The position numbers and the translations under genes were made by a program. From Deferrisomatales bacterium (lineage in GTDB: Bacteria; Desulfobacterota; Deferrisomatia; Deferrisomatales; JACRMM01): 64,000 nt of DNA. Numbering within the stretch: the stretch's first letter is position 1; each line of letters opens with the position of its first letter. The stretch covers positions 20,972-84,971 of the forward strand of contig JAWSUI010000011.1 in NCBI GenBank assembly GCA_033551855.1, in the 5' to 3' direction. The notes beneath the pieces were generated by a model. The model searched no databases, had not been told where the DNA came from, and saw nothing but the letters and a program-made list of their open reading frames with translations. Positions 6,078 to 55,621 of the stretch are shown in pieces.

Positions 6078-7069
6078 TGGGCAACGACAGGCCGCTGCTG
6101 TGTGTGGAGGACCTTCGGGTGGCGTTCCCCGGAGCCGGGTCGGCCGGCGAGCTGGCCGCGGTGCGGGGGGTGAGCCTCTCCCTGAAGCGGGGAGAGACCC
6201 TGGCCCTGGTGGGGGAGTCGGGGTGTGGAAAGAGCGTGACCGCCCTGTCGGTGATCGGCCTCGTCCCGTCCCCCGGCCGAGTGACCGGCGGCCGGGTCCT
6301 CTTCGACGGCCGGGACCTCACGTCCCTGAGCAGCCGGGCGCTCCGAAGCGTTCGGGGGCGGGAGGTGGGGATGGTCTTCCAGGAGCCGATGACCAGCCTG
6401 AACCCGGTGTTCACGGTGGGGTATCAGCTGGCGGAAGCGCTCACCGCCCACCGAAAGCTCCCCCGAGCCGAGCTGCGAGGCCGGTGCCTGGAGCTCCTGC
6501 GGGAGGTGGGCATACCGGCCCCGGAGGAGCGCCTGGGGGCGTACCCCTCCCAGCTCTCCGGGGGGCTGCGGCAGCGGGTGATGATCGCGATCGCCGTGGC
6601 GTGCCGGCCGCGGCTCCTGATTGCCGATGAGCCCACCACCGCCTTGGACGTGACCATCCAGGCGCAGATCATGGCGCTCCTGGGACGGCTGCGCCGAGAG
6701 CTGGGCATGGCGTTGTTGCTGATCACCCACGACCTGGGACTGGTGGCGCAAAACGTGGAACGGGTGGCGGTGATGTACGCGGGCCACGTGGTCGAGGAGT
6801 GCACGACGCGCCACCTCTTCGCCTCCCCCCTGCATCCCTACACCCGGGGCCTCCTGGGATCCGTGCCGGGGGCTTCCGGGGTCGGCCGGGGAGGCCGACT
6901 GCAGGCGATCTCGGGCAATGTTCCCCACCCCTCCCGGGTCCCCTCCGGGTGCCCCTTCCGGGACCGGTGTCCCCTGGCTGCCGACCCCTGCGCCGCGGCG
7001 CTGCCCGAACTCGCGGAGGTGCTTCCGGGCCGCCGCGTCCGCTGTATCCGGGTGGAACGCCGTGTTTGA
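6077..7069 (+). CDS. Oligopeptide/dipeptide ABC transporter ATP-binding protein (DppD/OppD type)
   Basis: ATG 6077 shares one base with the stop (TGA 6075-6077) of the permease remnant. It has Walker A GESGCGKS, the LSGGLRQRV signature, Walker [13 protein letters not shown] and the oligopeptide C-terminal CPFRDRCP motif. Confidence 0.88.
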
Positions 7070-8015
7070 GATCCGGGGCGTCAGCCGTCATTATCCCGTG
7101 GGGGGGGGCCTCCTGGGGCGCAAGCGCTGGCTCCGGGCCGTGGAGGGCCTGGACCTCGAGGTGGAGCAGGGGGAGACCCTCGCCCTGGTGGGGGAGTCGG
7201 GCTGCGGCAAGAGCACCCTCGCGAGGTTGCTGCTTAGGCTGGAGGAACCCACCCGGGGTACGATACGCTACCGAGAGCAGGACCTCTGGGGGCTGGACGC
7301 CGCCGGGGTGCGCCGGTTCCGCCGGGAGGTCCAGATGGTGTTCCAGGATCCGTACGCATCCCTGAACCCCCGGATGAAGGTGCGGGACATCGTGGGCGAG
7401 GGGCTCGCCATCCATCGGATCGGGACGCGGGCGCAGAGGCGAGGCCGGGTGGAGGGCTTGCTGGCCCAGGTGGGGCTGCCCCAGGAGGCGGCCCTGGCGT
7501 ATCCCCACGAGTTCAGCGGAGGACAGCGGCAGAGGATCGGCATCGCCCGCGCCCTGGCGGTCGAGCCCCGATTGCTGGTGGCGGACGAGCCCGTATCGGC
7601 CCTCGACGTCTCGATCCAGGCCCAGATCCTCAACCTGTTGCAGGACCTGAAGAGGTTGCGTGGCCTGACCTATCTGTTCATCAGCCACGACCTGCGGGTG
7701 GTGGAGCACGTGGCCGACCGGGTGGCCGTCATGTACCTGGGGAGGATCGTGGAGCTCGCATCCACCGAGGGGCTCTTCGCGGCGCCCCTCCACCCGTACA
7801 CCCAGGCGCTTCTCGCGGCGGTGCTGCCGACGGGCGCCGAGACCGGAAGGGAGCTCCGGGTGCTGGAAGGCGACGTGCCGAGCCCCCTCGACCCTCCCCC
7901 GGGCTGCCCTTTCCACCCCCGCTGCCCGCGGGCATGGGGGTTGTGCTCCGAGGAGGTCCCGCCCCCGATGTCCCCGGGGGCGGGACGAAGCGTTTCTTGT
8001 CACTTGTATTCCTGA
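7062..8015 (+). CDS. Oligopeptide/dipeptide ABC transporter ATP-binding protein (DppF/OppF type)
   Basis: GTG 7062 overlaps the preceding stop. It has Walker [31 protein letters not shown] and the C-terminal GCPFHPRCP motif. Confidence 0.88.
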
Positions 8016-15115: not shown

Positions 15116-15191
15116 GCGGGCGTAACTCAGTTGGTAGAGTATCAGCTTCCCAAGCTGAGGGTCGCGAGTTCGAGTCTCGTCGCCCGCTCCA
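15116..15191 (+). tRNA. tRNA-Gly (anticodon CCC), CCA encoded
   Basis: Hand-folded cloverleaf: acceptor GCGGGCG/CGCCCGC, D stem ACTC/GAGT, anticodon stem TCAGC/GCTGA with loop TTCCCAA, T stem GCGAG/CTCGT, T loop TTCGAGT. Confidence 0.95.
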
Positions 15192-48896: not shown

Positions 48897-49503
48897 CCTG
48901 TGCACGGCGGTGCTCTTCGCACTGGTGTCCGGGGGGGTGGCCGCCGACATCTACTCGGCCCGGCGGCCGGACGGCTCGGTCTCGTTCACCGACACGCCCA
49001 CCGCCCCCGAGTATTCCGTCGTCATCCGGGAGACTCCGCCGGTCTTGCCCTGGCGCGACGTGGCCGAGAGGGAGGCAGGGCGCCACGGCCTGGATCCCCG
49101 CCTCGTGCGTGCGGTGATCTACGTCGAGTCCGGGGAGAACCCCCGGGCCGTGTCGCCCAAGGGCGCCCAAGGCCTCATGCAGCTCATGCCGGGGACGGCC
49201 GACGAGCTGGGGGTGGGAAACCCCTTCCGGCCCAGGGAGAACATCCAGGGCGGGGTGAGCTACCTGGCTTCCATGCTGCAGCGTTTCGGCGGAGACCTTG
49301 AGCTCGCCCTGGCCGCCTACAACGCCGGGCCGGGCGCCGTGCAGCGCCACGGGGGCATCCCGCCGTACCCCGAAACCCAGCGCTACGTGAAGAAGGTTCT
49401 CGAGGTCTACCGCCGCCAGGGAGGCGAGACGGGGGGCGCCGCGGGGGTTGACACCGGCAACCTCCCCATGGATAATTCGGACCCCACAACCGGGCGGGAA
49501 TAA
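48880..49503 (+). CDS. Lytic transglycosylase (DUF4124-like N-terminus + SLT domain)
   Basis: Signal peptide, DIYSARRPDGSVSFTD, and SLT motifs VIYVESGENP...SPKGAQGLMQLMP.TA...AAYNAGPGAV. The 3' end overlaps the tRNA by 10 nt. Confidence 0.8.
   Translation: MRTAANLCTAVLFALVSGGVAADIYSARRPDGSVSFTDTPTAPEYSVVIRETPPVLPWRDVAEREAGRHGLDPRLVRAVIYVESGENPRAVSPKGAQGLMQLMPGTADELGVGNPFRPRENIQGGVSYLASMLQRFGGDLELALAAYNAGPGAVQRHGGIPPYPETQRYVKKVLEVYRRQGGETGGAAGVDTGNLPMDNSDPTTGRE
49448..49476 (+). promoter_or_regulatory. Sigma-70-type promoter for tRNA-Gly(GCC), embedded in the 3' end of the SLT gene
   Basis: TTGACA (49448-49453), 17-nt spacer, GATAAT (49471-49476). The tRNA 5' end lies 18 nt downstream. Confidence 0.55.
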
Positions 49504-49568
49504 CTCAGTGGTAGAGTGCGACCTTGCCAAGGTCGAAGTCGCGGGTTCGAATCCCGTTTCCCGCTCCA
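49494..49568 (+). tRNA. tRNA-Gly (anticodon GCC), CCA encoded
   Basis: Hand-folded: acceptor GCGGGAA/TTCCCGC, D stem ACTC/GAGT, anticodon stem CGACC/GGTCG with loop TTGCCAA, T stem GCGGG/CCCGT, T loop TTCGAAT. Confidence 0.95.
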
Positions 49569-49593
49569 CGAAATCTCCAGTCCCTACGGGGAC

Positions 49594-50892
49594 TTACAAT
49601 TCGATAGCCCCCATTTTCGGCCGGATGTCACCCCAAATGTCACCCGAGCCGAGCTGGGGGCTCCCGTTTTTCGGGCCTTCGAGGTACTCCTCGATGGCGT
49701 CCACGTCGTCCTCCAGTCCCTCCACGTACCGCCCGTAGACCTCATAGATCATCTGCCGGCTGCCGTGCCCCATGAGGCGGACCACCTTGTCGGGGTGGAC
49801 CCCCCGCATGAGGTTCCACGCGGCGAAGGTGTGCCGGGCGGCATAGGGCTTCCGGTAGGGAAGACCGGAGGCCTGGAAGGCCTTGGCCCAGGGGCCGTTG
49901 CGAAACCGCACGTTGGCCGCATTCGTCTCGATCCAGGGACGGCCATCCTCCCAGGTGATCAGGTGGTCTCCGTGCCGGCGCTCCCTGAGCTCGTCGAGCT
50001 GGCGCCGGAGCGCGGGCGTGACCGGGATCTCCCTCTTCCGGTAGACGGTCTTGCTCCCCTGCACCGTCAGCCGGTCACCCCGGATGTCACCCGAGGTGAG
50101 CCGTCCAAGCTCCGAGGAGATCATCCCCGTCATCACCATCACTTCGCAGATGGGCCGGTAGTGGGGGGCCATGTGCTTCATCAGGGTCTGCCACTCGTGG
50201 ACCCGGAAGGTCTGGGGGTCGCTCTTCGTCCGCTGCGGGATGAGCTGCCCCCGGCGGTTTCGGCGCTTCAGGTGCTCGAAGGGGTTCCGGAGGTCCCAGC
50301 CGTGCTCTTCGACCGCATCCTCCCAGATGATCCGCAGGGGGATGAGGAGGTTCCGGATCCGGCTCGGGGACAGATGGTCGAGCCCCCGCACGAAGTCGAC
50401 CACCTGGACCCCGGTGAGCTCGCCGAAGCTCAGGCCCCCGAACCGGGGAAGGAGGTGCCGGTTGATGATCGACCGATAGTCCCGGCGCTTCGTCGCGCTC
50501 CGCTCAGTGTCCAGGTGAGCCGTGACCCACGTGCCGACGTAGTCGGCGATGATGACGTCCGCCGGGTCAGTCTGGGCGTCCTGATGCTCGTGACCCTCGA
50601 GCCGAGCGAACTTCGCCTTCTCCTGATCCGAAGCCCCGGGAAATGCCTCCTCGAAGCGAAACGTCCCCGCCTGGATGGCCTTGCCGATCTCGGCCAGGAA
50701 CGCGCGGGTCTTCCCGCGGTTCTTCCGGTTGTCCTCGAGCCCAGTAGCGCGTTGCACGACCTCTCCGAAGTACGTGAACCGGATCGAGAGTCGCCCGCCG
50801 CGGGCGATCACGTATCCGAACCGTCGAGGCCTTGGGGTTTTCTCACTCTTCTTCTGTTCTGGAAATGGAATCACCTCTGCCGATGGTTGCAT
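49594..50892 (-). CDS. int: Tyrosine recombinase / integrase
   Basis: 433 aa from ATG 50892. Catalytic-region pattern ...TGMISSELGRL...ARHTFAAW...LMGHGS..M....YGRY (R..H-x-x-R..H..Y). Lies 25 nt from the tRNA 3' end. Confidence 0.9.
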   Translation of the reverse strand: MQPSAEVIPFPEQKKSEKTPRPRRFGYVIARGGRLSIRFTYFGEVVQRATGLEDNRKNRGKTRAFLAEIGKAIQAGTFRFEEAFPGASDQEKAKFARLEGHEHQDAQTDPADVIIADYVGTWVTAHLDTERSATKRRDYRSIINRHLLPRFGGLSFGELTGVQVVDFVRGLDHLSPSRIRNLLIPLRIIWEDAVEEHGWDLRNPFEHLKRRNRRGQLIPQRTKSDPQTFRVHEWQTLMKHMAPHYRPICEVMVMTGMISSELGRLTSGDIRGDRLTVQGSKTVYRKREIPVTPALRRQLDELRERRHGDHLITWEDGRPWIETNAANVRFRNGPWAKAFQASGLPYRKPYAARHTFAAWNLMRGVHPDKVVRLMGHGSRQMIYEVYGRYVEGLEDDVDAIEEYLEGPKNGSPQLGSGDIWGDIRPKMGAIEL

Positions 50893-50965
50893 GTCAGTCT
50901 CCCATGGTGCACCTCCTCTCCATGACTGTGGCCTGAAGGGAGAGTACACGGGGGAAGTGGGGTGC

Positions 50966-51301
50966 TCAAGGGGGCGCCCGGTAGTGCAGGTCCAGGACCG
51001 GTTCCTTGGAGCCGGACTTCTGTGCCTTATGGGGACGTGGCGGAGCAGGTTTCGTCTCCGAGGGCGTTTCCACTTCCGAGACTGCGGCCGTGAGGATCGC
51101 GTCTCGGGCCTGGGGCCAAAGGTAGCGGACGTTCTTGTCCGAGGGGCGGACCTTCGGTCCAGCGCGGGTGGAAGGGATCCAGGTGTAGTCACGTTGCGCC
51201 TGTAGCAAACCGAGCCGACGCCATGCCTTCACGGTGCTGACGCTGACGTCCATGCGCTCCGCGAACCTCGTTTGGGTCAACAGACACTCGGCTTGTGTCA
51301 C
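50966..51301 (-). CDS. xis: Excisionase/AlpA-like helix-turn-helix DNA-binding protein
   Basis: GTG 51301 follows an AAGGAGAAGG SD. LLTQTRFAERMDVSVSTVKAWRRLGLL is a MerR-superfamily excisionase-type HTH. Lies directly upstream of int. Confidence 0.6.
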   Translation of the reverse strand: MTQAECLLTQTRFAERMDVSVSTVKAWRRLGLLQAQRDYTWIPSTRAGPKVRPSDKNVRYLWPQARDAILTAAVSEVETPSETKPAPPRPHKAQKSGSKEPVLDLHYRAPP

Positions 51302-51625
51302 CCGATCACCTTCTCCTTGCGTCTGCTGTATAGGTGGCGGGCGGGGTCATCCTTCTCGATCTCTGGCGGAACACCGCCCCTTCACTTAGGTATTCGCGCG
51401 CCTTGGAACATGAAACCTGGGCTGAGGCACGGGGGACGGAGCGATGTCTACGACCGGAGGTGGCACTGCCAGAAACGGGCCGGTTCTGGGAAGTGATGGT
51501 GTCTCGGCGCAGGCGAAGAGGGGCAGGGATTCGGGAGCTGTTCGCAAGAAAGAGCGCGTCAGCCGGGATGCCCGCGCTTCTGGTGGGAGGGGGGGCGGCT
51601 CTACGGAATCAGGCGCAGAGTAGTC

Positions 51626-52603
51626 TCAGGTGCGATCGATCCCGAACCTTGCCCACAGCGGGTAGTGGTCGGAGACGCGGAAAGAGATGGAGTTCCGGCT
51701 GAGGTTCGCGTCCGTGTAGACGTAGGGCAGAAAGTCGAAGTTTCCGCCGCTGAGGTACTCCATGGACAGGAGGCGCCGACTGCCTTCTTGAAACCACGCG
51801 ACCTGGTCATAGAACTTCCCGGTGTCCGGGTTGCCGGGCTCGGAGAAGATCGTCCGGGGCAGGCTGACCAGGTCCGCCGGGACGTGGAGCCCGGTCGAGG
51901 TGAAGGCCCTCCAGAGGTCGTCGCCGTGGCGGTCGATGTTGAAATCCCCGAGGGTCAAGAGGTTGTGGTGCCAGCGGTTCTCCCGAGCCGCCCACTCGGC
52001 CATCCACCGGGCGATCCCCCGGAGCTCCGGGACGCGGCCGGCCGCGTCCCGCCCATACTCGACGTGGAGGGTGACGAGGATGAAGGTGGCGGCGCCGGTC
52101 TTGAAACTCACCGCGTAGGGCGTTCGGGCGAACTGCCGCCGCAGCGCAGTGGCCTCGATCTCCTTCTCCCACTCGGGGGGAACCACGAGCTCACAGGCAA
52201 GGCCGGAGGGTCTTACACGTTCCAGGTCGAACAAGAAGGCCATCCGTTCGTGGTTTCCCGCCTGGCCCAGGGTCACGTCGGTCATGAGGAAGGCCCAACG
52301 CTCGCCGAGAAGCAGGAGGAGGTCCCGGAGCGCTCTGAGGTCCCCCATGACTTCTTGAAGGGCTACCACGTCGAAGCGGGACACGATCTCCCCGATGGCC
52401 AGGAGCCCGCGGAGGTCGCGTTTGGGGGTGTCGCTCGCCTGCGCAGTCCATTTGCGGGTGAGGGAGCTGAACATGCGAAGGTTCCAGGTGGCGATCAGCA
52501 GGTCCCCAGCGTTCTTGCGCGGGATAAACGTGTCCAGCCCGTTGCGGAGGGCGTCGAGGTCGTTGCGGACGTTCGCAGGCGGGGAGTCGAGGATGGTCGG
52601 CAT
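51626..52603 (-). CDS. Endonuclease/exonuclease/phosphatase (EEP, DNase I-like) family protein, no signal peptide
   Basis: ATWNL (Asn), ALQEV (Glu), TLHVEYG, LGDFNID and SDHYPLWARF (Asp-His) make a full EEP catalytic set. Confidence 0.8.
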   Translation of the reverse strand: MPTILDSPPANVRNDLDALRNGLDTFIPRKNAGDLLIATWNLRMFSSLTRKWTAQASDTPKRDLRGLLAIGEIVSRFDVVALQEVMGDLRALRDLLLLLGERWAFLMTDVTLGQAGNHERMAFLFDLERVRPSGLACELVVPPEWEKEIEATALRRQFARTPYAVSFKTGAATFILVTLHVEYGRDAAGRVPELRGIARWMAEWAARENRWHHNLLTLGDFNIDRHGDDLWRAFTSTGLHVPADLVSLPRTIFSEPGNPDTGKFYDQVAWFQEGSRRLLSMEYLSGGNFDFLPYVYTDANLSRNSISFRVSDHYPLWARFGIDRT

Positions 52604-52684
52604 GCAACGTCTCCCGTCACGGGGTGGCCCCGATGGCAATGGGCTGGCCCAGCGGCTCTCAAGGCGGGGGTCGTGGGGCCTGCC

Positions 52685-53050
52685 TCAGAAGACCGGTAAC
52701 TCCCGGCGTTCGTCCGCCTCCGGGCTGCGGTGGGGCCGGCCGTTGATCAGCACCTCGACAACGTAGTCGTTCGGGTTGCACCCGGCGAGCCGGAACTTCG
52801 AGATGCCGGAGCTCGCGTCCGGGTTGTAGTACACCGCGCGCAAAGGTTCTGGCGGGGTCGGAGTCGCGCCGTCCATGGGGACCAATGCGAGCATCGGGAC
52901 TACGACCAGAGCCCAGAGAAGGGTCGTCCTTGATCTCCTGGGCGGGGGAAGGGGGGGGTCGGGGCGAAGGGGTATTACGTTCTCTCCGGTGGCGCTCCGG
53001 ACGATCTGCCGGACTCTCCGTGCGGTGATGCAACGAACCCTGTCGTCCAT
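52685..53050 (-). CDS. Small single-pass membrane protein (hypothetical)
   Basis: ATG 53050 follows an AAGGGGGAG SD. Central TM helix (TTLLWALVVVPMLALVP). Lies between the XRE and EEP genes. Confidence 0.5.
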   Translation of the reverse strand: MDDRVRCITARRVRQIVRSATGENVIPLRPDPPLPPPRRSRTTLLWALVVVPMLALVPMDGATPTPPEPLRAVYYNPDASSGISKFRLAGCNPNDYVVEVLINGRPHRSPEADERRELPVF

Positions 53051-53077
53051 GGTCTCCCCCTTTGTCCTCCGACGGTC

Positions 53078-53503
53078 TCAGGTTGCCAGTCTGATCATCT
53101 TCGCGATGTGGGCCCGGCCCGGCTGGGTTCCTTCCTCGTGTCCCACCATGTCGTAGAGCAACACCACCAGCTCCGCCTTCTTTTTCGGCTCCAGGGTCAC
53201 CCCCAGCTCGCGGAGTTCCGTCTCCACCCCCTCGATGACGCCCGCCAGCACGGACTCGTCCGGTCCCGCGCGCTCCCCCCGCTCCGCCGGAGGGGGCTCC
53301 CGACCCAGCACGAGCCAGTCGCAGGACACTCCCGCCTCCTCGCTGAGCTTTCCCAGGAAGACCGGATCGGGGAGCTGGCCCCGTTCGATCCTGCCGACGG
53401 TGTCCCGAGAGACCTCGGTGCGTTCTGCCAGCTCCGCCTGACTCCAGCCGAGCCGCTCACGCGTCTCCCGCACTCTTTCGCACACACTCGGTAGCGTCGC
53501 CAT
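53078..53503 (-). CDS. XRE-family (cI-like) HTH transcriptional regulator, probably leaderless
   Basis: VRETRERLGWSQAELAERTEVSRDTVGRIERG is an XRE HTH. ATG 53503 lies 6 nt downstream of a TATACT -10 box. An alternative GTG at 53518 lacks an SD. Confidence 0.8.
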   Translation of the reverse strand: MATLPSVCERVRETRERLGWSQAELAERTEVSRDTVGRIERGQLPDPVFLGKLSEEAGVSCDWLVLGREPPPAERGERAGPDESVLAGVIEGVETELRELGVTLEPKKKAELVVLLYDMVGHEEGTQPGRAHIAKMIRLAT

Positions 53504-53509
53504 GTGCGA

Positions 53510-53537
53510 AGTATACACAGGAAAGGGGAGGTGTCAA
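53510..53537 (-). promoter_or_regulatory. Near-consensus sigma-70 promoter driving the XRE gene (leaderless configuration)
   Basis: On the minus strand: TTGACA (53537-53532), 16-nt spacer, TATACT (53515-53510), then TCGCAC and the ATG. Confidence 0.5.
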
Positions 53538-53722
53538 CCCGTGGTTTAGGCCTCCAGTGGCCTTCCATGGAGGAATCCAGCCAGGACTACGAGGAAGCCG
53601 CGCGTCCGGTCTACGTGTGCGAATCGTGCATTTTCATGGTTGACGAGTGCGAAGTACGCGTGCTATCTGTGTTCATGTCGCACAACACGACGGGGCAGGG
53701 TAGAGCCCGGGAGGGAGACGAT

Positions 53723-54439
53723 ATGGAACCCATGACGGCGAGGCGGGATCAGACAGGGCCCGCCTGCGGGACTCCGCGAGGGCGTGACCGGGGGAGGCAC
53801 GGTCTCCGAGTACGCAGGACGGCCACCGGCGTCTCGTCTCGGGCCTCGCCGGAGGGAGACGGGGTTCCTGACGCCGAGGCGTGGGAGCAGGCGGCGCGGT
53901 GGGTGGAAGAGCACCGGAAGTTGATCGTCCGTTGTGCCGAGCGCTATGCGGCCTACGCACCCTACGATCGGCAGGACTACCTCCAGCAGGCCGTTCTGGC
54001 CGCCTTCCACGCCTGGAAGGACTGCGTTCGCTTGGGGCAACCGGAGCGCTTCACTGCCTTCTGCTTCATCCGCTTCCGCCGGGAGTGCCGGGACGAGCTC
54101 GCCATTCGCCGCGACGCTCCGGCGAGCCTTCGCCCGGAGGACCGGCCCCTGGACCCGTCGGCCGGAGGCCTGGAGGGGAACCGAAGGAACGCGGGCGGAG
54201 AGGAGGTGGCCGAGCGGGAGGCCCTCATCCGGAAGGCCCTGCACTGGATGACCCCGCGCCAGCAGCTCGCCTGGCTCCTCGCCCTCGGCCATCTCGGCCA
54301 TGGCCAAGCGGACCCCAAGGAGATCGCCCGGACCCTCAAGATCAGCCGGCGCGCCGCAGCAGGACTCTTGGCGCGGGGACAGGTCCAAGCGGAAGAGGGC
54401 GTCCGCCGGGAGAAGCAGGCGCTGAAGGCGGCCGGCTGA
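53723..54439 (+). CDS. Sigma-70-family-like protein (region 2 and region 4 HTH)
   Basis: ATG 53723 follows GGGAGGGAGA. LIVRCAERYA....DRQDYLQQAVLAAFHAWKD is region-2-like. MTPRQQLAW.L......ADPKEIARTLKISRRAA is region-4-like. The upstream part of the tracked ORF looks non-coding (AT-rich). Confidence 0.5.
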   Translation: MEPMTARRDQTGPACGTPRGRDRGRHGLRVRRTATGVSSRASPEGDGVPDAEAWEQAARWVEEHRKLIVRCAERYAAYAPYDRQDYLQQAVLAAFHAWKDCVRLGQPERFTAFCFIRFRRECRDELAIRRDAPASLRPEDRPLDPSAGGLEGNRRNAGGEEVAEREALIRKALHWMTPRQQLAWLLALGHLGHGQADPKEIARTLKISRRAAAGLLARGQVQAEEGVRREKQALKAAG

Positions 54440-54539: not shown

Positions 54540-54917
54540 GTGAACGTACGGAGGTGGGGTCTCGTGGCAGGGCTTCTCGCGGCCAGCTTCGCGGAGGCGG
54601 ACGCCATTCGCCAGGAGCGCTACCAGTACGCGAGTGGCCTCGCTCGCTTTCTGGTGAGCGAGCGCTCGTGGGTGGTCCGTGCGGAGCCGATCGCTGCCCA
54701 AGCCCTCCACATCCCAAAGCCCTCGCCGCCACTCCTAGCGGTTCGCATGGGAGGCGCGACGAGGCCTCCCCAGGACGGAGGATCCGGAAGAAGAGCAGAG
54801 GAGGGCCCCGACCGAGCAGCCAGCGAGGACCCCGGGACGAAGGCCCGGTGTCTGGAACCCTTTGGCCAGGACGGAGGCACCCGCCCCTTTGACCCCGTCT
54901 TGGAGGAGTCGCCGTGA
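54540..54917 (+). CDS. Small secreted hypothetical protein
   Basis: GTG 54540 follows AGGAGGAGAG. Signal peptide (WGLVAGLLAASFAEA). GTGA overlap with the dsbC-like gene. Confidence 0.45.
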   Translation: MNVRRWGLVAGLLAASFAEADAIRQERYQYASGLARFLVSERSWVVRAEPIAAQALHIPKPSPPLLAVRMGGATRPPQDGGSGRRAEEGPDRAASEDPGTKARCLEPFGQDGGTRPFDPVLEESP

Positions 54918-55621
54918 GAAGTCCCCTTTGGATCGTCTGCTGTGGTGGGCTGTTCCTGACGAGTCTGTCCACAGGCTGGGCCTTCGCAGAAGGAGACTCC
55001 TCCGACGCGGAGACGGCACTGCGACAGCTCTTTCCCCGGTTCGAGGTCACGGCGGTCCACCCGACCCCGGTGGAAAGCCTGTTCGAGGTTGTGGCCGGCG
55101 AGAACGTCCTCTACTTCGCCGCAGCCACCGGACATCTCCTCTTCGGGGAGCTCTGGTCCAAGGAGGGGGTGAGCCTCACCGCGGCGCGGAAGGAGCGCCT
55201 CCTGGCCGAGAAGGTCGCGCGCCTTCCCCTGGACCGGGCCGTCCGGATCGGCTTCGGCCCCACGGTGGTGATCGAGGTCACCGACCCCGACTGCCCCTTC
55301 TGCCGGATGGGCAGCGACTACCTGAAGACCCGGAGCGACGTCACGCGCTATGTGTTCTTCCACCCCCTGCCGAGCCATCCCCAAGCCCGAGCCAAGACCC
55401 GGTACATCCTGGCCGCCTCCGACCCGGCCGGAGCCTACGCCGAGGTCTTCGCCGGCTGCTACGACGAGGGCTCGCTGCCCGAGTCCCCACCCACGGATCG
55501 ACTGGAGGAGCACCTCCGGCTCGTGGAAGGGCTCGGTGTCCGCGGGACACCGCACTACTGGATCGGCGGCGAGCACGTGGCTGGGGCCGATCTCGACGCC
55601 ATCCGCAACCTGCTGCCGTAG
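54914..55621 (+). CDS. dsbC: DsbC-like thiol:disulfide interchange protein (ICE-encoded)
   Basis: Signal peptide, a dimerisation-like N-domain and a thioredoxin fold with DPDCPFC and ...GV.GTP. Confidence 0.75.
   Translation: MRSPLWIVCCGGLFLTSLSTGWAFAEGDSSDAETALRQLFPRFEVTAVHPTPVESLFEVVAGENVLYFAAATGHLLFGELWSKEGVSLTAARKERLLAEKVARLPLDRAVRIGFGPTVVIEVTDPDCPFCRMGSDYLKTRSDVTRYVFFHPLPSHPQARAKTRYILAASDPAGAYAEVFAGCYDEGSLPESPPTDRLEEHLRLVEGLGVRGTPHYWIGGEHVAGADLDAIRNLLP

Follow-up and report, generated by a model that had tools for sequence, protein, structure and literature searches.

Do three adjacent genes at one end of an integrative and conjugative element (ICE) work together as one system, or do they belong to separate modules that lie side by side? 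The question is raised by the locus at positions 51626-53503, on the minus strand, of a 64,000-nt stretch of DNA from a Deferrisomatales bacterium (contig JAWSUI010000011.1). This whole stretch is called the window below, and all positions refer to it. The locus consists of a gene for an XRE/cI-type helix-turn-helix (HTH) repressor (53078-53503, minus strand; 141 residues from its ATG; Pfam HTH_3, E = 2.5e-13), a gene for a single-pass membrane (TM) protein of 121 residues with no family match (52685-53050, minus strand), and a gene for an EEP protein of 325 residues (51626-52603, minus strand; PF03372, E = 6.8e-10). A sequence-only reading of this DNA had described three co-oriented genes with spacings of 27 nt and 81 nt, each of the two downstream genes being preceded by a Shine-Dalgarno motif. 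The coordinates of the open reading frames (ORFs) agree with this description, and the motifs GGGGGAG and GGGAGA, both of the GGAG type, are found before the two downstream ATG codons.

It is very probable that the locus has a two-module architecture, in which the XRE and TM genes belong to the backbone of the ICE and the EEP gene is separate cargo. The overall explanation that we consider best, with a confidence only a little better than even, is a repressor and membrane protein backbone followed by a solitary cytoplasmic DNase carried as cargo in an F-type ICE.

Backbone pair and cargo slot

The XRE and TM pair is common to four sister F-type ICEs, L007, L014, L015 and L016 (L-numbers denote the compared loci and P-numbers the compared proteins). 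The genes that follow the pair are of different kinds. In L007 the slot contains an EEP gene, with xis-int coming next, in L014 it contains genes for a SAM methyltransferase and a DJ-1/PfpI protein, and in both L015 and L016 it contains an M16-peptidase-like gene. When the DNA of the window is compared with that of L014, the homology breaks off at 52683, 2 nt beyond the stop codon of the TM gene (52685-52687). With L007 it reaches 51626, at the EEP stop, and is then lost until part of the integrase gene. These breakpoints, together with the variable third gene, lead to the assignment of XRE and TM to the backbone of the ICE and of EEP to a variable cargo slot that precedes xis-int. The junction of backbone and cargo is the 81-nt spacer 52604-52684 (minus strand), which holds the Shine-Dalgarno motif of the EEP gene. 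The signal scan detected neither promoter nor terminator in this spacer, and it predicted no terminator or second promoter between the three genes.

The sequence-only reading had considered that the three genes might act together as one system of defence, abortive infection or exclusion, with the TM protein sensing a signal and controlling the nuclease. The co-orientation of the genes, the short gaps, the absence of predicted internal terminators or promoters and the presence of the same trio in L007 are all in keeping with such a system. However, a survey of the co-occurrence of the TM and EEP genes found them together only in the window and in L007, two closely related elements whose EEP proteins are 85% identical, while L014, L015 and L016 contain the XRE and TM genes without EEP. 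In 86 other loci, neither an XRE nor a TM partner is present beside the EEP gene. These are the non-redundant loci of the neighbour survey, for which all ORFs of at least 50 residues within 5 kb were clustered. The family sizes are also very different, with six relatives of the TM protein against more than 3,758 homologues of the EEP protein (word-indexed search), and a homology breakpoint is located exactly between the two genes. Since the two distributions differ and the components do not co-occur across unrelated genomes, as an obligate system would demand, the single-system proposal largely falls, and we regard it as very unlikely. The apparent three-gene system thus dissolves into an ordinary ICE repressor module and a cargo slot, and a false call of a defence system is avoided.

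The position of the EEP gene had also been compared with that of immA, which would make the locus an induction module of the ImmR/ImmA type with a downstream protein acting as an anti-repressor that inactivates XRE. The layout is similar, with the repressor gene followed by genes upstream of xis-int. ImmR/ImmA modules have a cI/XRE-type repressor that lies close to int and is divergent from the transfer genes, and this trait is present here. The XRE protein matches Phage_CI_repr (E = 8.5e-5) and phage repressor PHROGs, while its PADLOC matches are to generic HTH models only. It has no S24 peptidase domain for self-cleavage, so some anti-repressor would be needed. However, ImmA is an M78 (COG2856) metalloprotease, and neither the TM nor the EEP protein has a Peptidase_M78/ImmA or HEXXH domain. 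In addition, sister ICEs with the same repressor have unrelated genes in place of EEP, and the EEP family is found overwhelmingly outside ICEs. As no M78 protease is encoded by either downstream gene, the immA-like proposal does not hold, and the chance that the locus is such a module is considered minimal.

The likeness to the immR-immA-int region of ICEBs1 and to cI-rexAB of lambda is therefore one of arrangement. In all of them a repressor gene is divergent from the transfer genes and accessory genes lie on the repressor transcript, and in the window, as in ICEBs1, xis and int are close to the repressor module. The differences are that the M78 protease of ICEBs1 is missing, that the genes are not homologous to rexAB of lambda, and that the activator side of the window encodes an ECF-like sigma factor, unlike either of these systems. 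In the way it works, the arrangement appears comparable to other cases in which prophages and ICEs have accessory genes linked to their repressor. A type II toxin-antitoxin pair formed by XRE and EEP was also considered and was rejected on the lack of a conserved neighbour of EEP in the 86 loci. The corresponding check found no conserved small ORF and no conserved DNA upstream of the EEP gene.

A single hydrophobic segment (residues 43-59, Kyte-Doolittle value 2.26) is present in the TM protein, as expected for the single-pass protein described earlier. Its N-terminus has a charge of +6, and the predicted topology is N-in, C-out. No match to it was found in Pfam, NCBIfam, PADLOC or PHROGs, and a search of 5.8 billion clusters gave six relatives with identities of 54-67%. 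The relatives have 120-121 residues, and one of the six is the window's own gene in its annotated form. The public annotation of the contig calls only a C-terminal fragment of 69 residues (P0123) for this gene. The existence of full-length homologues and the dN/dS values of 0.32-0.39 show that the ORF of 121 residues is a real gene. The loci of the relatives, L007, L014, L015 and L016, are the sister ICEs, each with a divergent TraL-E-K-B-V-C block, and the TM gene directly follows the XRE gene in every one of them. The XRE gene is syntenic in the same four loci, and its dN/dS in the comparison of sister ICEs is 0.13-0.23.

The TM gene is a mosaic. Between the window and L015 the amino acid identity of the TM protein is 54%, as against 96-97% for the XRE protein and the sigma factor, and the DNA homology to L015 (TM gene at 7001-7363) breaks at 52947, just past the conserved N-terminus. 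The N-terminal 34 residues, predicted to be cytoplasmic, are conserved, and the rest of the protein is about 50% identical to that of L015. The membrane segment and the outer part would thus be fast-evolving or allele-swapped. A determinant of entry exclusion or specificity could well be a small envelope protein of this kind, restricted to one lineage, allele-swapped and encoded on the repressor transcript, and judged from sequence this is the most likely role of the TM protein. Alternatively, it might act in the membrane as an anti-sigma partner for the divergent sigma factor. It resembles TraS of F, Eex of SXT/R391 and YddJ of ICEBs1 in being a small membrane protein that is encoded by the element and limited to one lineage, and its allelic divergence is, as in entry-exclusion proteins, far above that of neighbouring backbone genes. 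It differs from them in having no detected sequence similarity to any described family and in being encoded with the repressor and not inside the tra operon. A hypervariable small membrane protein that travels on the repressor transcript of these ICEs is of interest in itself.

Fold, catalytic residues and spread of the EEP family

The EEP protein scores 39.5 bits against PF03372, for which the gathering cut-off is 24.5 bits. In agreement with the sequence-only reading, the catalytic set is intact: residues N41, E84, H180, D220/N222, D266 and D312/H313 are invariant in an alignment of 38 homologues. The same reading had found no signal peptide, and indeed there is no N-terminal hydrophobic segment. 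The AlphaFold (AF2) model has a pLDDT of 82.7 and a pTM of 0.88, and shows a four-layer α/β sandwich. When it was compared with the PDB by Foldseek, human DNase I (4awn) came first with E = 1.9e-13, and DNase1L3 was found with E = 9.9e-12. The best matches, 4awn, 2a3z and 7kiu, span E-values from 1.9e-13 to 1e-11, and they are followed by TDP2, EEPD1 and CNOT6L. A fold search of BFVD gave only generic EEP folds with 9-17% identity.

The sequence comparison points in the same direction. The family profile searched against PDB sequences matched DNase I with E-values down to 3.3e-7, and these were the only matches below E = 0.01; the sole match to a protein other than DNase I, at E = 0.056, was to a nitrite reductase. 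The family profile was needed to reach DNase I, since phmmer with the single EEP sequence gave no match in the PDB. The DNase I residues E39, E78, R111, H134, D168/N170, Y211/D212 and D251/H252 (in the established numbering) align to residues that are invariant in the family. It can be concluded that by its domain, fold and catalytic residues the EEP protein falls within the EEP superfamily's DNase I-like branch. The earlier note had raised the possibility of grouping with housekeeping phosphatases; both sequence and structure matches place the protein with DNase I instead.

The resemblance to DNase I and DNase1L3, which share the fold, are the best matches by structure and by sequence and have the catalytic positions invariant, is accompanied by several differences. 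The window protein is cytoplasmic, with no signal peptide and no disulfides. The family has an additional conserved N-terminal helix of 33 residues and a PKRDLR insert, and its identity to DNase I is 16-23%. Unlike DNase I, it is prokaryotic, solitary and horizontally spread. Two families of bacterial nucleases were rejected as assignments, and the window protein has no N-terminal hydrophobic segment of the kind relevant to them: the secreted MnuA family scored 22.7 bits against a cut-off of 185, and the ExeM/NucH family 13 bits against a cut-off of 300.

The substrate of the EEP protein is, with moderate confidence, DNA. The alternative that it hydrolyses a phosphoester other than DNA, such as a lipid, inositol phosphate, RNA or poly(A), draws on the wide range of substrates of this fold and on the presence of CNOT6L and PDE12 among the structural matches. 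It also draws on two minor-groove contacts of DNase I, Y76 and R41 (in the same numbering), which are not kept in the EEP family. However, no sphingomyelinase and no inositol phosphatase was among the 50 PDB matches listed, the profile reached DNase I and no other nuclease or phosphatase, and the fusion of an EEP domain to a lamin-tail domain (LTD) in one relative resembles the extracellular DNases of the ExeM/NucH type. A substrate other than DNA is thus considered improbable.

The family is large and its members are very uniform. Among the best 120 of the homologues, to which the identity and length figures refer, the identity is 62-85% and nearly all proteins have 315-332 residues, with outliers of 342 and 417; a typical length is about 324 residues. 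A scan of about 185,600 GTDB species genomes found carriers with 52-71% identity in at least 408 of them, this count being a lower bound. The carriers span more than 15 phyla, including archaea. The bacterial groups are Planctomycetota, Chloroflexota, Nitrospirota, Alpha-, Beta- and Gammaproteobacteria, Bacteroidota, Verrucomicrobiota, Calditrichia, Chlorobiota, WOR-3, Gemmatimonadota and Actinomycetota, and the archaeal groups are Bathyarchaeia and Haloarchaea. The GC content of the host loci ranges from 32 to 72%. Identities of 52-71% across phyla and archaea, at such different GC contents, indicate from the sequences compared that the family has spread horizontally under strong constraint.

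The EEP gene is a one-gene unit with no obligate partner. The largest cluster of neighbours covers only 6 of the 86 loci, so that no neighbour is conserved; there are two clusters of this size, one of pyrG from a syntenic alphaproteobacterial group and one of an ABC-transporter ATPase. An all-against-all blastn of the 200-nt regions before the EEP genes found no upstream DNA conserved beyond close relatives, and the homology between L008 and L030 is limited to the EEP ORF. A census of the two closest genes on each side with Pfam and PADLOC gave the same picture. The 147 nearest and 135 next-nearest proteins match 221 and 166 Pfam families, respectively, and among the 25 most frequent families listed for each scan none exceeds two neighbour proteins. 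No dominant family of mobile genetic elements or of defence systems was found in this census, and for this reason no enrichment in defence islands is claimed.

The genomic contexts are varied. The gene is found in a Hyphomonas ICE beside DUF1508 and a zeta toxin, in an F-type element beside TacAT and CcdA, in a Streptomyces plasmid beside a Fic toxin, at chromosomal sites beside HipBA, and also at sites among wholly ordinary genes. On the Sphaerotilus sulfidivorans plasmid NZ_CP035707.1 (L017, 5541-8234) the homologue is 63% identical and has a hypothetical gene on one side and the cas genes on the other; it is located 12 nt from cas2-cas1-cas2, with BREX pglW 2.5 kb away.

Two further arrangements were observed. 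In most of the alphaproteobacterial loci L051, L066, L075, L083, L084 and L088 the EEP gene is just downstream of pyrG, which encodes CTP synthase, and in four of these loci, which come from several genera, a glyoxalase-like gene is next after EEP. In a gammaproteobacterial metagenome-assembled genome, two EEP copies are contained in a 3.1-kb repeat with 99.5% identity (L023, 365-3482, and L024, 5856-8975). The repeat ends 9 nt past the EEP stop, in L023 near the contig end; either a small mobile unit or a repetition produced by the assembly may explain it.

The value that remains after the three-gene system has been set aside is in this family. It consists of thousands of strongly conserved proteins of nearly identical length, without a signal peptide, in bacterial and archaeal phyla, which have no partner gene and are annotated with the name of the superfamily only.

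Possible roles as a conflict effector or a processing enzyme

A defensive or exclusion role of the EEP protein is possible, with a confidence that falls somewhat short of even. According to the mechanism proposed, the protein would be a Mg2+-dependent nuclease of the DNase I type that acts inside the cell as a conflict effector and degrades incoming or non-self DNA from a phage, a competing plasmid or another ICE. Both the ICE and its host would benefit from this degradation. The proposal of a conflict effector is made because relatives of the protein are fused to domains known from such systems. Relatives with 35-51% identity contain additional TIR, caspase, WYL, LTD or second EEP domains. 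The forms observed are tandem EEP-EEP, TIR-EEP with an N-terminal TIR domain, caspase-EEP, WYL-EEP, and EEP-LTD with the lamin-tail domain at the C-terminus; in the same order, the proteins are P0127/P0128, P0160/P0179/P0193/P0198/P0206, P0169, P0382 (L102, 8001-9524) and P0132. The WYL-EEP gene is followed by a gene for a STAND-like AAA_16 ATPase and a LuxR-type gene. The TIR part of the TIR-EEP proteins matches the ThsB, SAVED-TIR and Argonaute-TIR defence models, while the EEP parts of the fusion proteins match no PADLOC model. One split TIR and EEP locus is located among insertion sequence elements and recombinases. The TIR-EEP and caspase-EEP fusions were seen on contigs too short for gene context. 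The toxin-antitoxin, cas1/cas2, BREX pglW, Fic and HipBA neighbours at some loci also suggest a role in conflict.

The sequence-only reading knew of no described defence system with this composition, and this stands: PADLOC-DB 2.0.0, at a match limit of E ≤ 0.01, has no match for the TM or the EEP protein, and the NCBIfam scan gave nothing specific for either. The nearest comparison is with the caspase-nuclease 'canu' pairs, in which DNase effectors are gated by a protease (PMC12799240). The nucleases of canu and Hachiman are of the MBL fold and not of the EEP fold (PMC12799240). The fusion of TIR, caspase or WYL domains to relatives of the window protein with 35-44% identity resembles canu, but the window protein itself is the solo form and has no sensor or protease partner.

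A more specific form of this proposal, which we hold only tentatively, is that the EEP protein is a self-sufficient, single-gene intracellular nuclease that represents a new type of immune or exclusion system, spread horizontally in bacteria and archaea. The ICEs would then carry the gene on the repressor transcript as a means against phages or rival conjugative elements. The safety of the host could be provided by a restriction of the substrate to entering DNA that is single-stranded, modified or protein-capped, for example relaxase-linked T-strands. Alternatively, it could be provided by gating through the conserved N-terminal helix. If the protein is an immune or exclusion nuclease, a very small system of one gene would be added to those described, and it would be, to our knowledge, the first intracellular role in prokaryotes for an enzyme of the DNase I type.

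Several observations weigh against the explanation favoured here, and they concern each of its parts. That the EEP gene is co-transcribed with XRE and TM would follow only from the lack of predicted signals. For the TM protein the AlphaFold model is unusable (pLDDT 55), and the putative role of this protein is deduced from its topology and evolutionary pattern. If no immunity gene accompanies it, a DNase that acts alone in the cytoplasm must have a restricted substrate or be gated by some mechanism. The flanks of the EEP genes are mostly ordinary, with pyrG, glyoxalase, permeases, ABC transporters and CLC channels, and matches to defence models (AbiEi, MADS and JetA) are limited to a handful among the 147 nearest neighbours. 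Judged by these raw counts, any enrichment in defence islands would be weak. The synteny of pyrG, EEP and glyoxalase in Alphaproteobacteria looks vertically retained, which would fit a role in cellular nucleic-acid metabolism equally well. There are no PADLOC or PHROG models of the EEP protein; tblastn against phage genomes gave no EEP match, and none was found in PHROGs. Literature on this EEP family, or on any function of it, was not found. An apparent match to "EEP" in the literature turned out to be a phage name, and a paper of 2020 on conflict systems mentions neither EEP nor DNase I.

The main rival to a conflict role is that the EEP protein is an accessory enzyme of DNA repair or nucleic-acid processing which hitch-hikes as cargo of the ICE. 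Such an enzyme could be a 5'-phosphotyrosyl phosphodiesterase similar to TDP2, which would clear trapped adducts of gyrase, relaxase or Rep, or it could be a nuclease that cleans 3' ends. TDP2 is the second structural group, with E of about 1e-10 and a target-normalised TM-score of 0.61-0.70, a value similar to that of DNase I. If the protein were a repair enzyme and not toxic, it would be understandable that the cell tolerates a solo copy in the cytoplasm with neither an immunity gene nor a partner gene, and the mostly housekeeping flanks and the stable synteny in some clades are also compatible with it. However, the likeness to TDP2 is confined to the fold and has no counterpart in sequence: apart from one marginal and unrelated match (the nitrite reductase), the profile matches DNase I and not TDP2, APE1 or ExoIII. 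The occurrence of EEP in the species genomes scanned is rare and patchy, and fusions with TIR, caspase and WYL domains are what one typically sees in conflict systems, not in repair. A repair enzyme is thus rather unlikely, and if it is one, it would be an unusual enzyme that is traded horizontally.

Control region and integration end of the element

The sequence-only reading had called the XRE mRNA leaderless. The promoter scan, which covered 51200-54000, found a single sigma-70-like site, TTGACA-16-TATACT, at 53510-53537 on the minus strand (read from 53537 to 53510). It matches 11 of the 12 consensus positions, where shuffled sequence gives an expectation of 0.1, and the ATG of XRE begins 6 nt past the end of the -10 hexamer. 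The -35 hexamer, CGCACATG and five of the six positions of the -10 hexamer are invariant in the three sister elements L007, L014 and L015, one of which is only about 75% identical. The single variable position is that of L014, where the -10 hexamer is TATAAT. This conserved promoter would put the start of the transcript at the XRE ATG, which makes the earlier suggestion plausible; from the distance of the -10 hexamer and its conservation, the XRE mRNA is probably leaderless.

The control region between XRE and the divergent sigma factor gene has 219 bp. Four copies of the repeats TGTGCGAA/TTCGCACA are distributed over 53477-53653 (unstranded) as candidate half-sites of an XRE operator, and one inverted TGTGCGAA/TTCGCACA pair flanks the start of the XRE transcript on both sides. 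Since the sister ICEs have kept these motifs, the repeats are probably operators of the repressor. In the mechanism proposed, XRE would bind these repeats and keep the ICE quiescent. In this state the TM and EEP proteins would be made from the repressor transcript, EEP by read-through from the repressor promoter.

The gene divergent from XRE (53723-54439, plus strand) encodes an ECF-like sigma factor with a region 2 and an HTH of the region-4 type. Its match to Sigma70_r2 (E = 3.4e-4) is weaker than the Pfam cut-off. The sigma-2 and sigma-4-like blocks are conserved in four ICEs, and the N-terminal extension is variable. The protein may be an activator of the downstream tra genes. For F-type ICEs of Desulfobacterota, the arrangement is a clean example of a putatively leaderless XRE repressor gene that faces the gene of an ECF-like sigma factor.

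The ICE context given by the sequence-only reading was confirmed: xis and int beside a tRNA-Gly(GCC) are located on one side of the three genes and the tra genes on the other. The locus is thus the regulatory and integration end of an F-type ICE inserted at this tRNA gene. On the left, an excisionase-like gene encodes a small HTH protein (50966-51301, minus strand; MerR HTH with E = 6.3e-4, below the Pfam cut-off), and L007 has a gene of 100 residues at the corresponding position. It is followed by the tyrosine integrase gene (49594-51192, minus strand; Arm-DNA-bind_2 and Phage_integrase), which abuts the tRNA-Gly(GCC) gene (49494-49568, plus strand), where the ICE is integrated and has its left end. 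DNA of L007 matches the window at 49546-49574, at this tRNA gene. No second copy of the tRNA-Gly(GCC) 3' end was found within the window, so that the other end of the ICE lies beyond it.

The integrase ORF as listed has 532 residues from a GTG and overlaps the xis-like ORF, and therefore the true start of one or both is different. Since related integrases have about 414 residues, the integrase start is probably downstream of the listed GTG. L007 shares the EEP gene, yet its integrase is much more divergent, which points to a shuffling of modules at this end of the ICE.

On the other side, beyond the sigma factor gene, the TraL/E/K/B/V/C genes were identified by DNA identities of 87-93% to annotated loci. 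The tra region is headed by a DsbC/thioredoxin-like gene (54914-55621, plus strand), whose counterparts in L014 and L015 are the DsbC_N/Thioredoxin_2 genes. L007 is without most of this gene, the gap in homology being 54917-55557 of the window. The Rfam scan gave nothing besides the tRNA. A second tRNA gene, tRNA-Gly(CCC), is located far from the ICE end at 15116-15191 on the plus strand.

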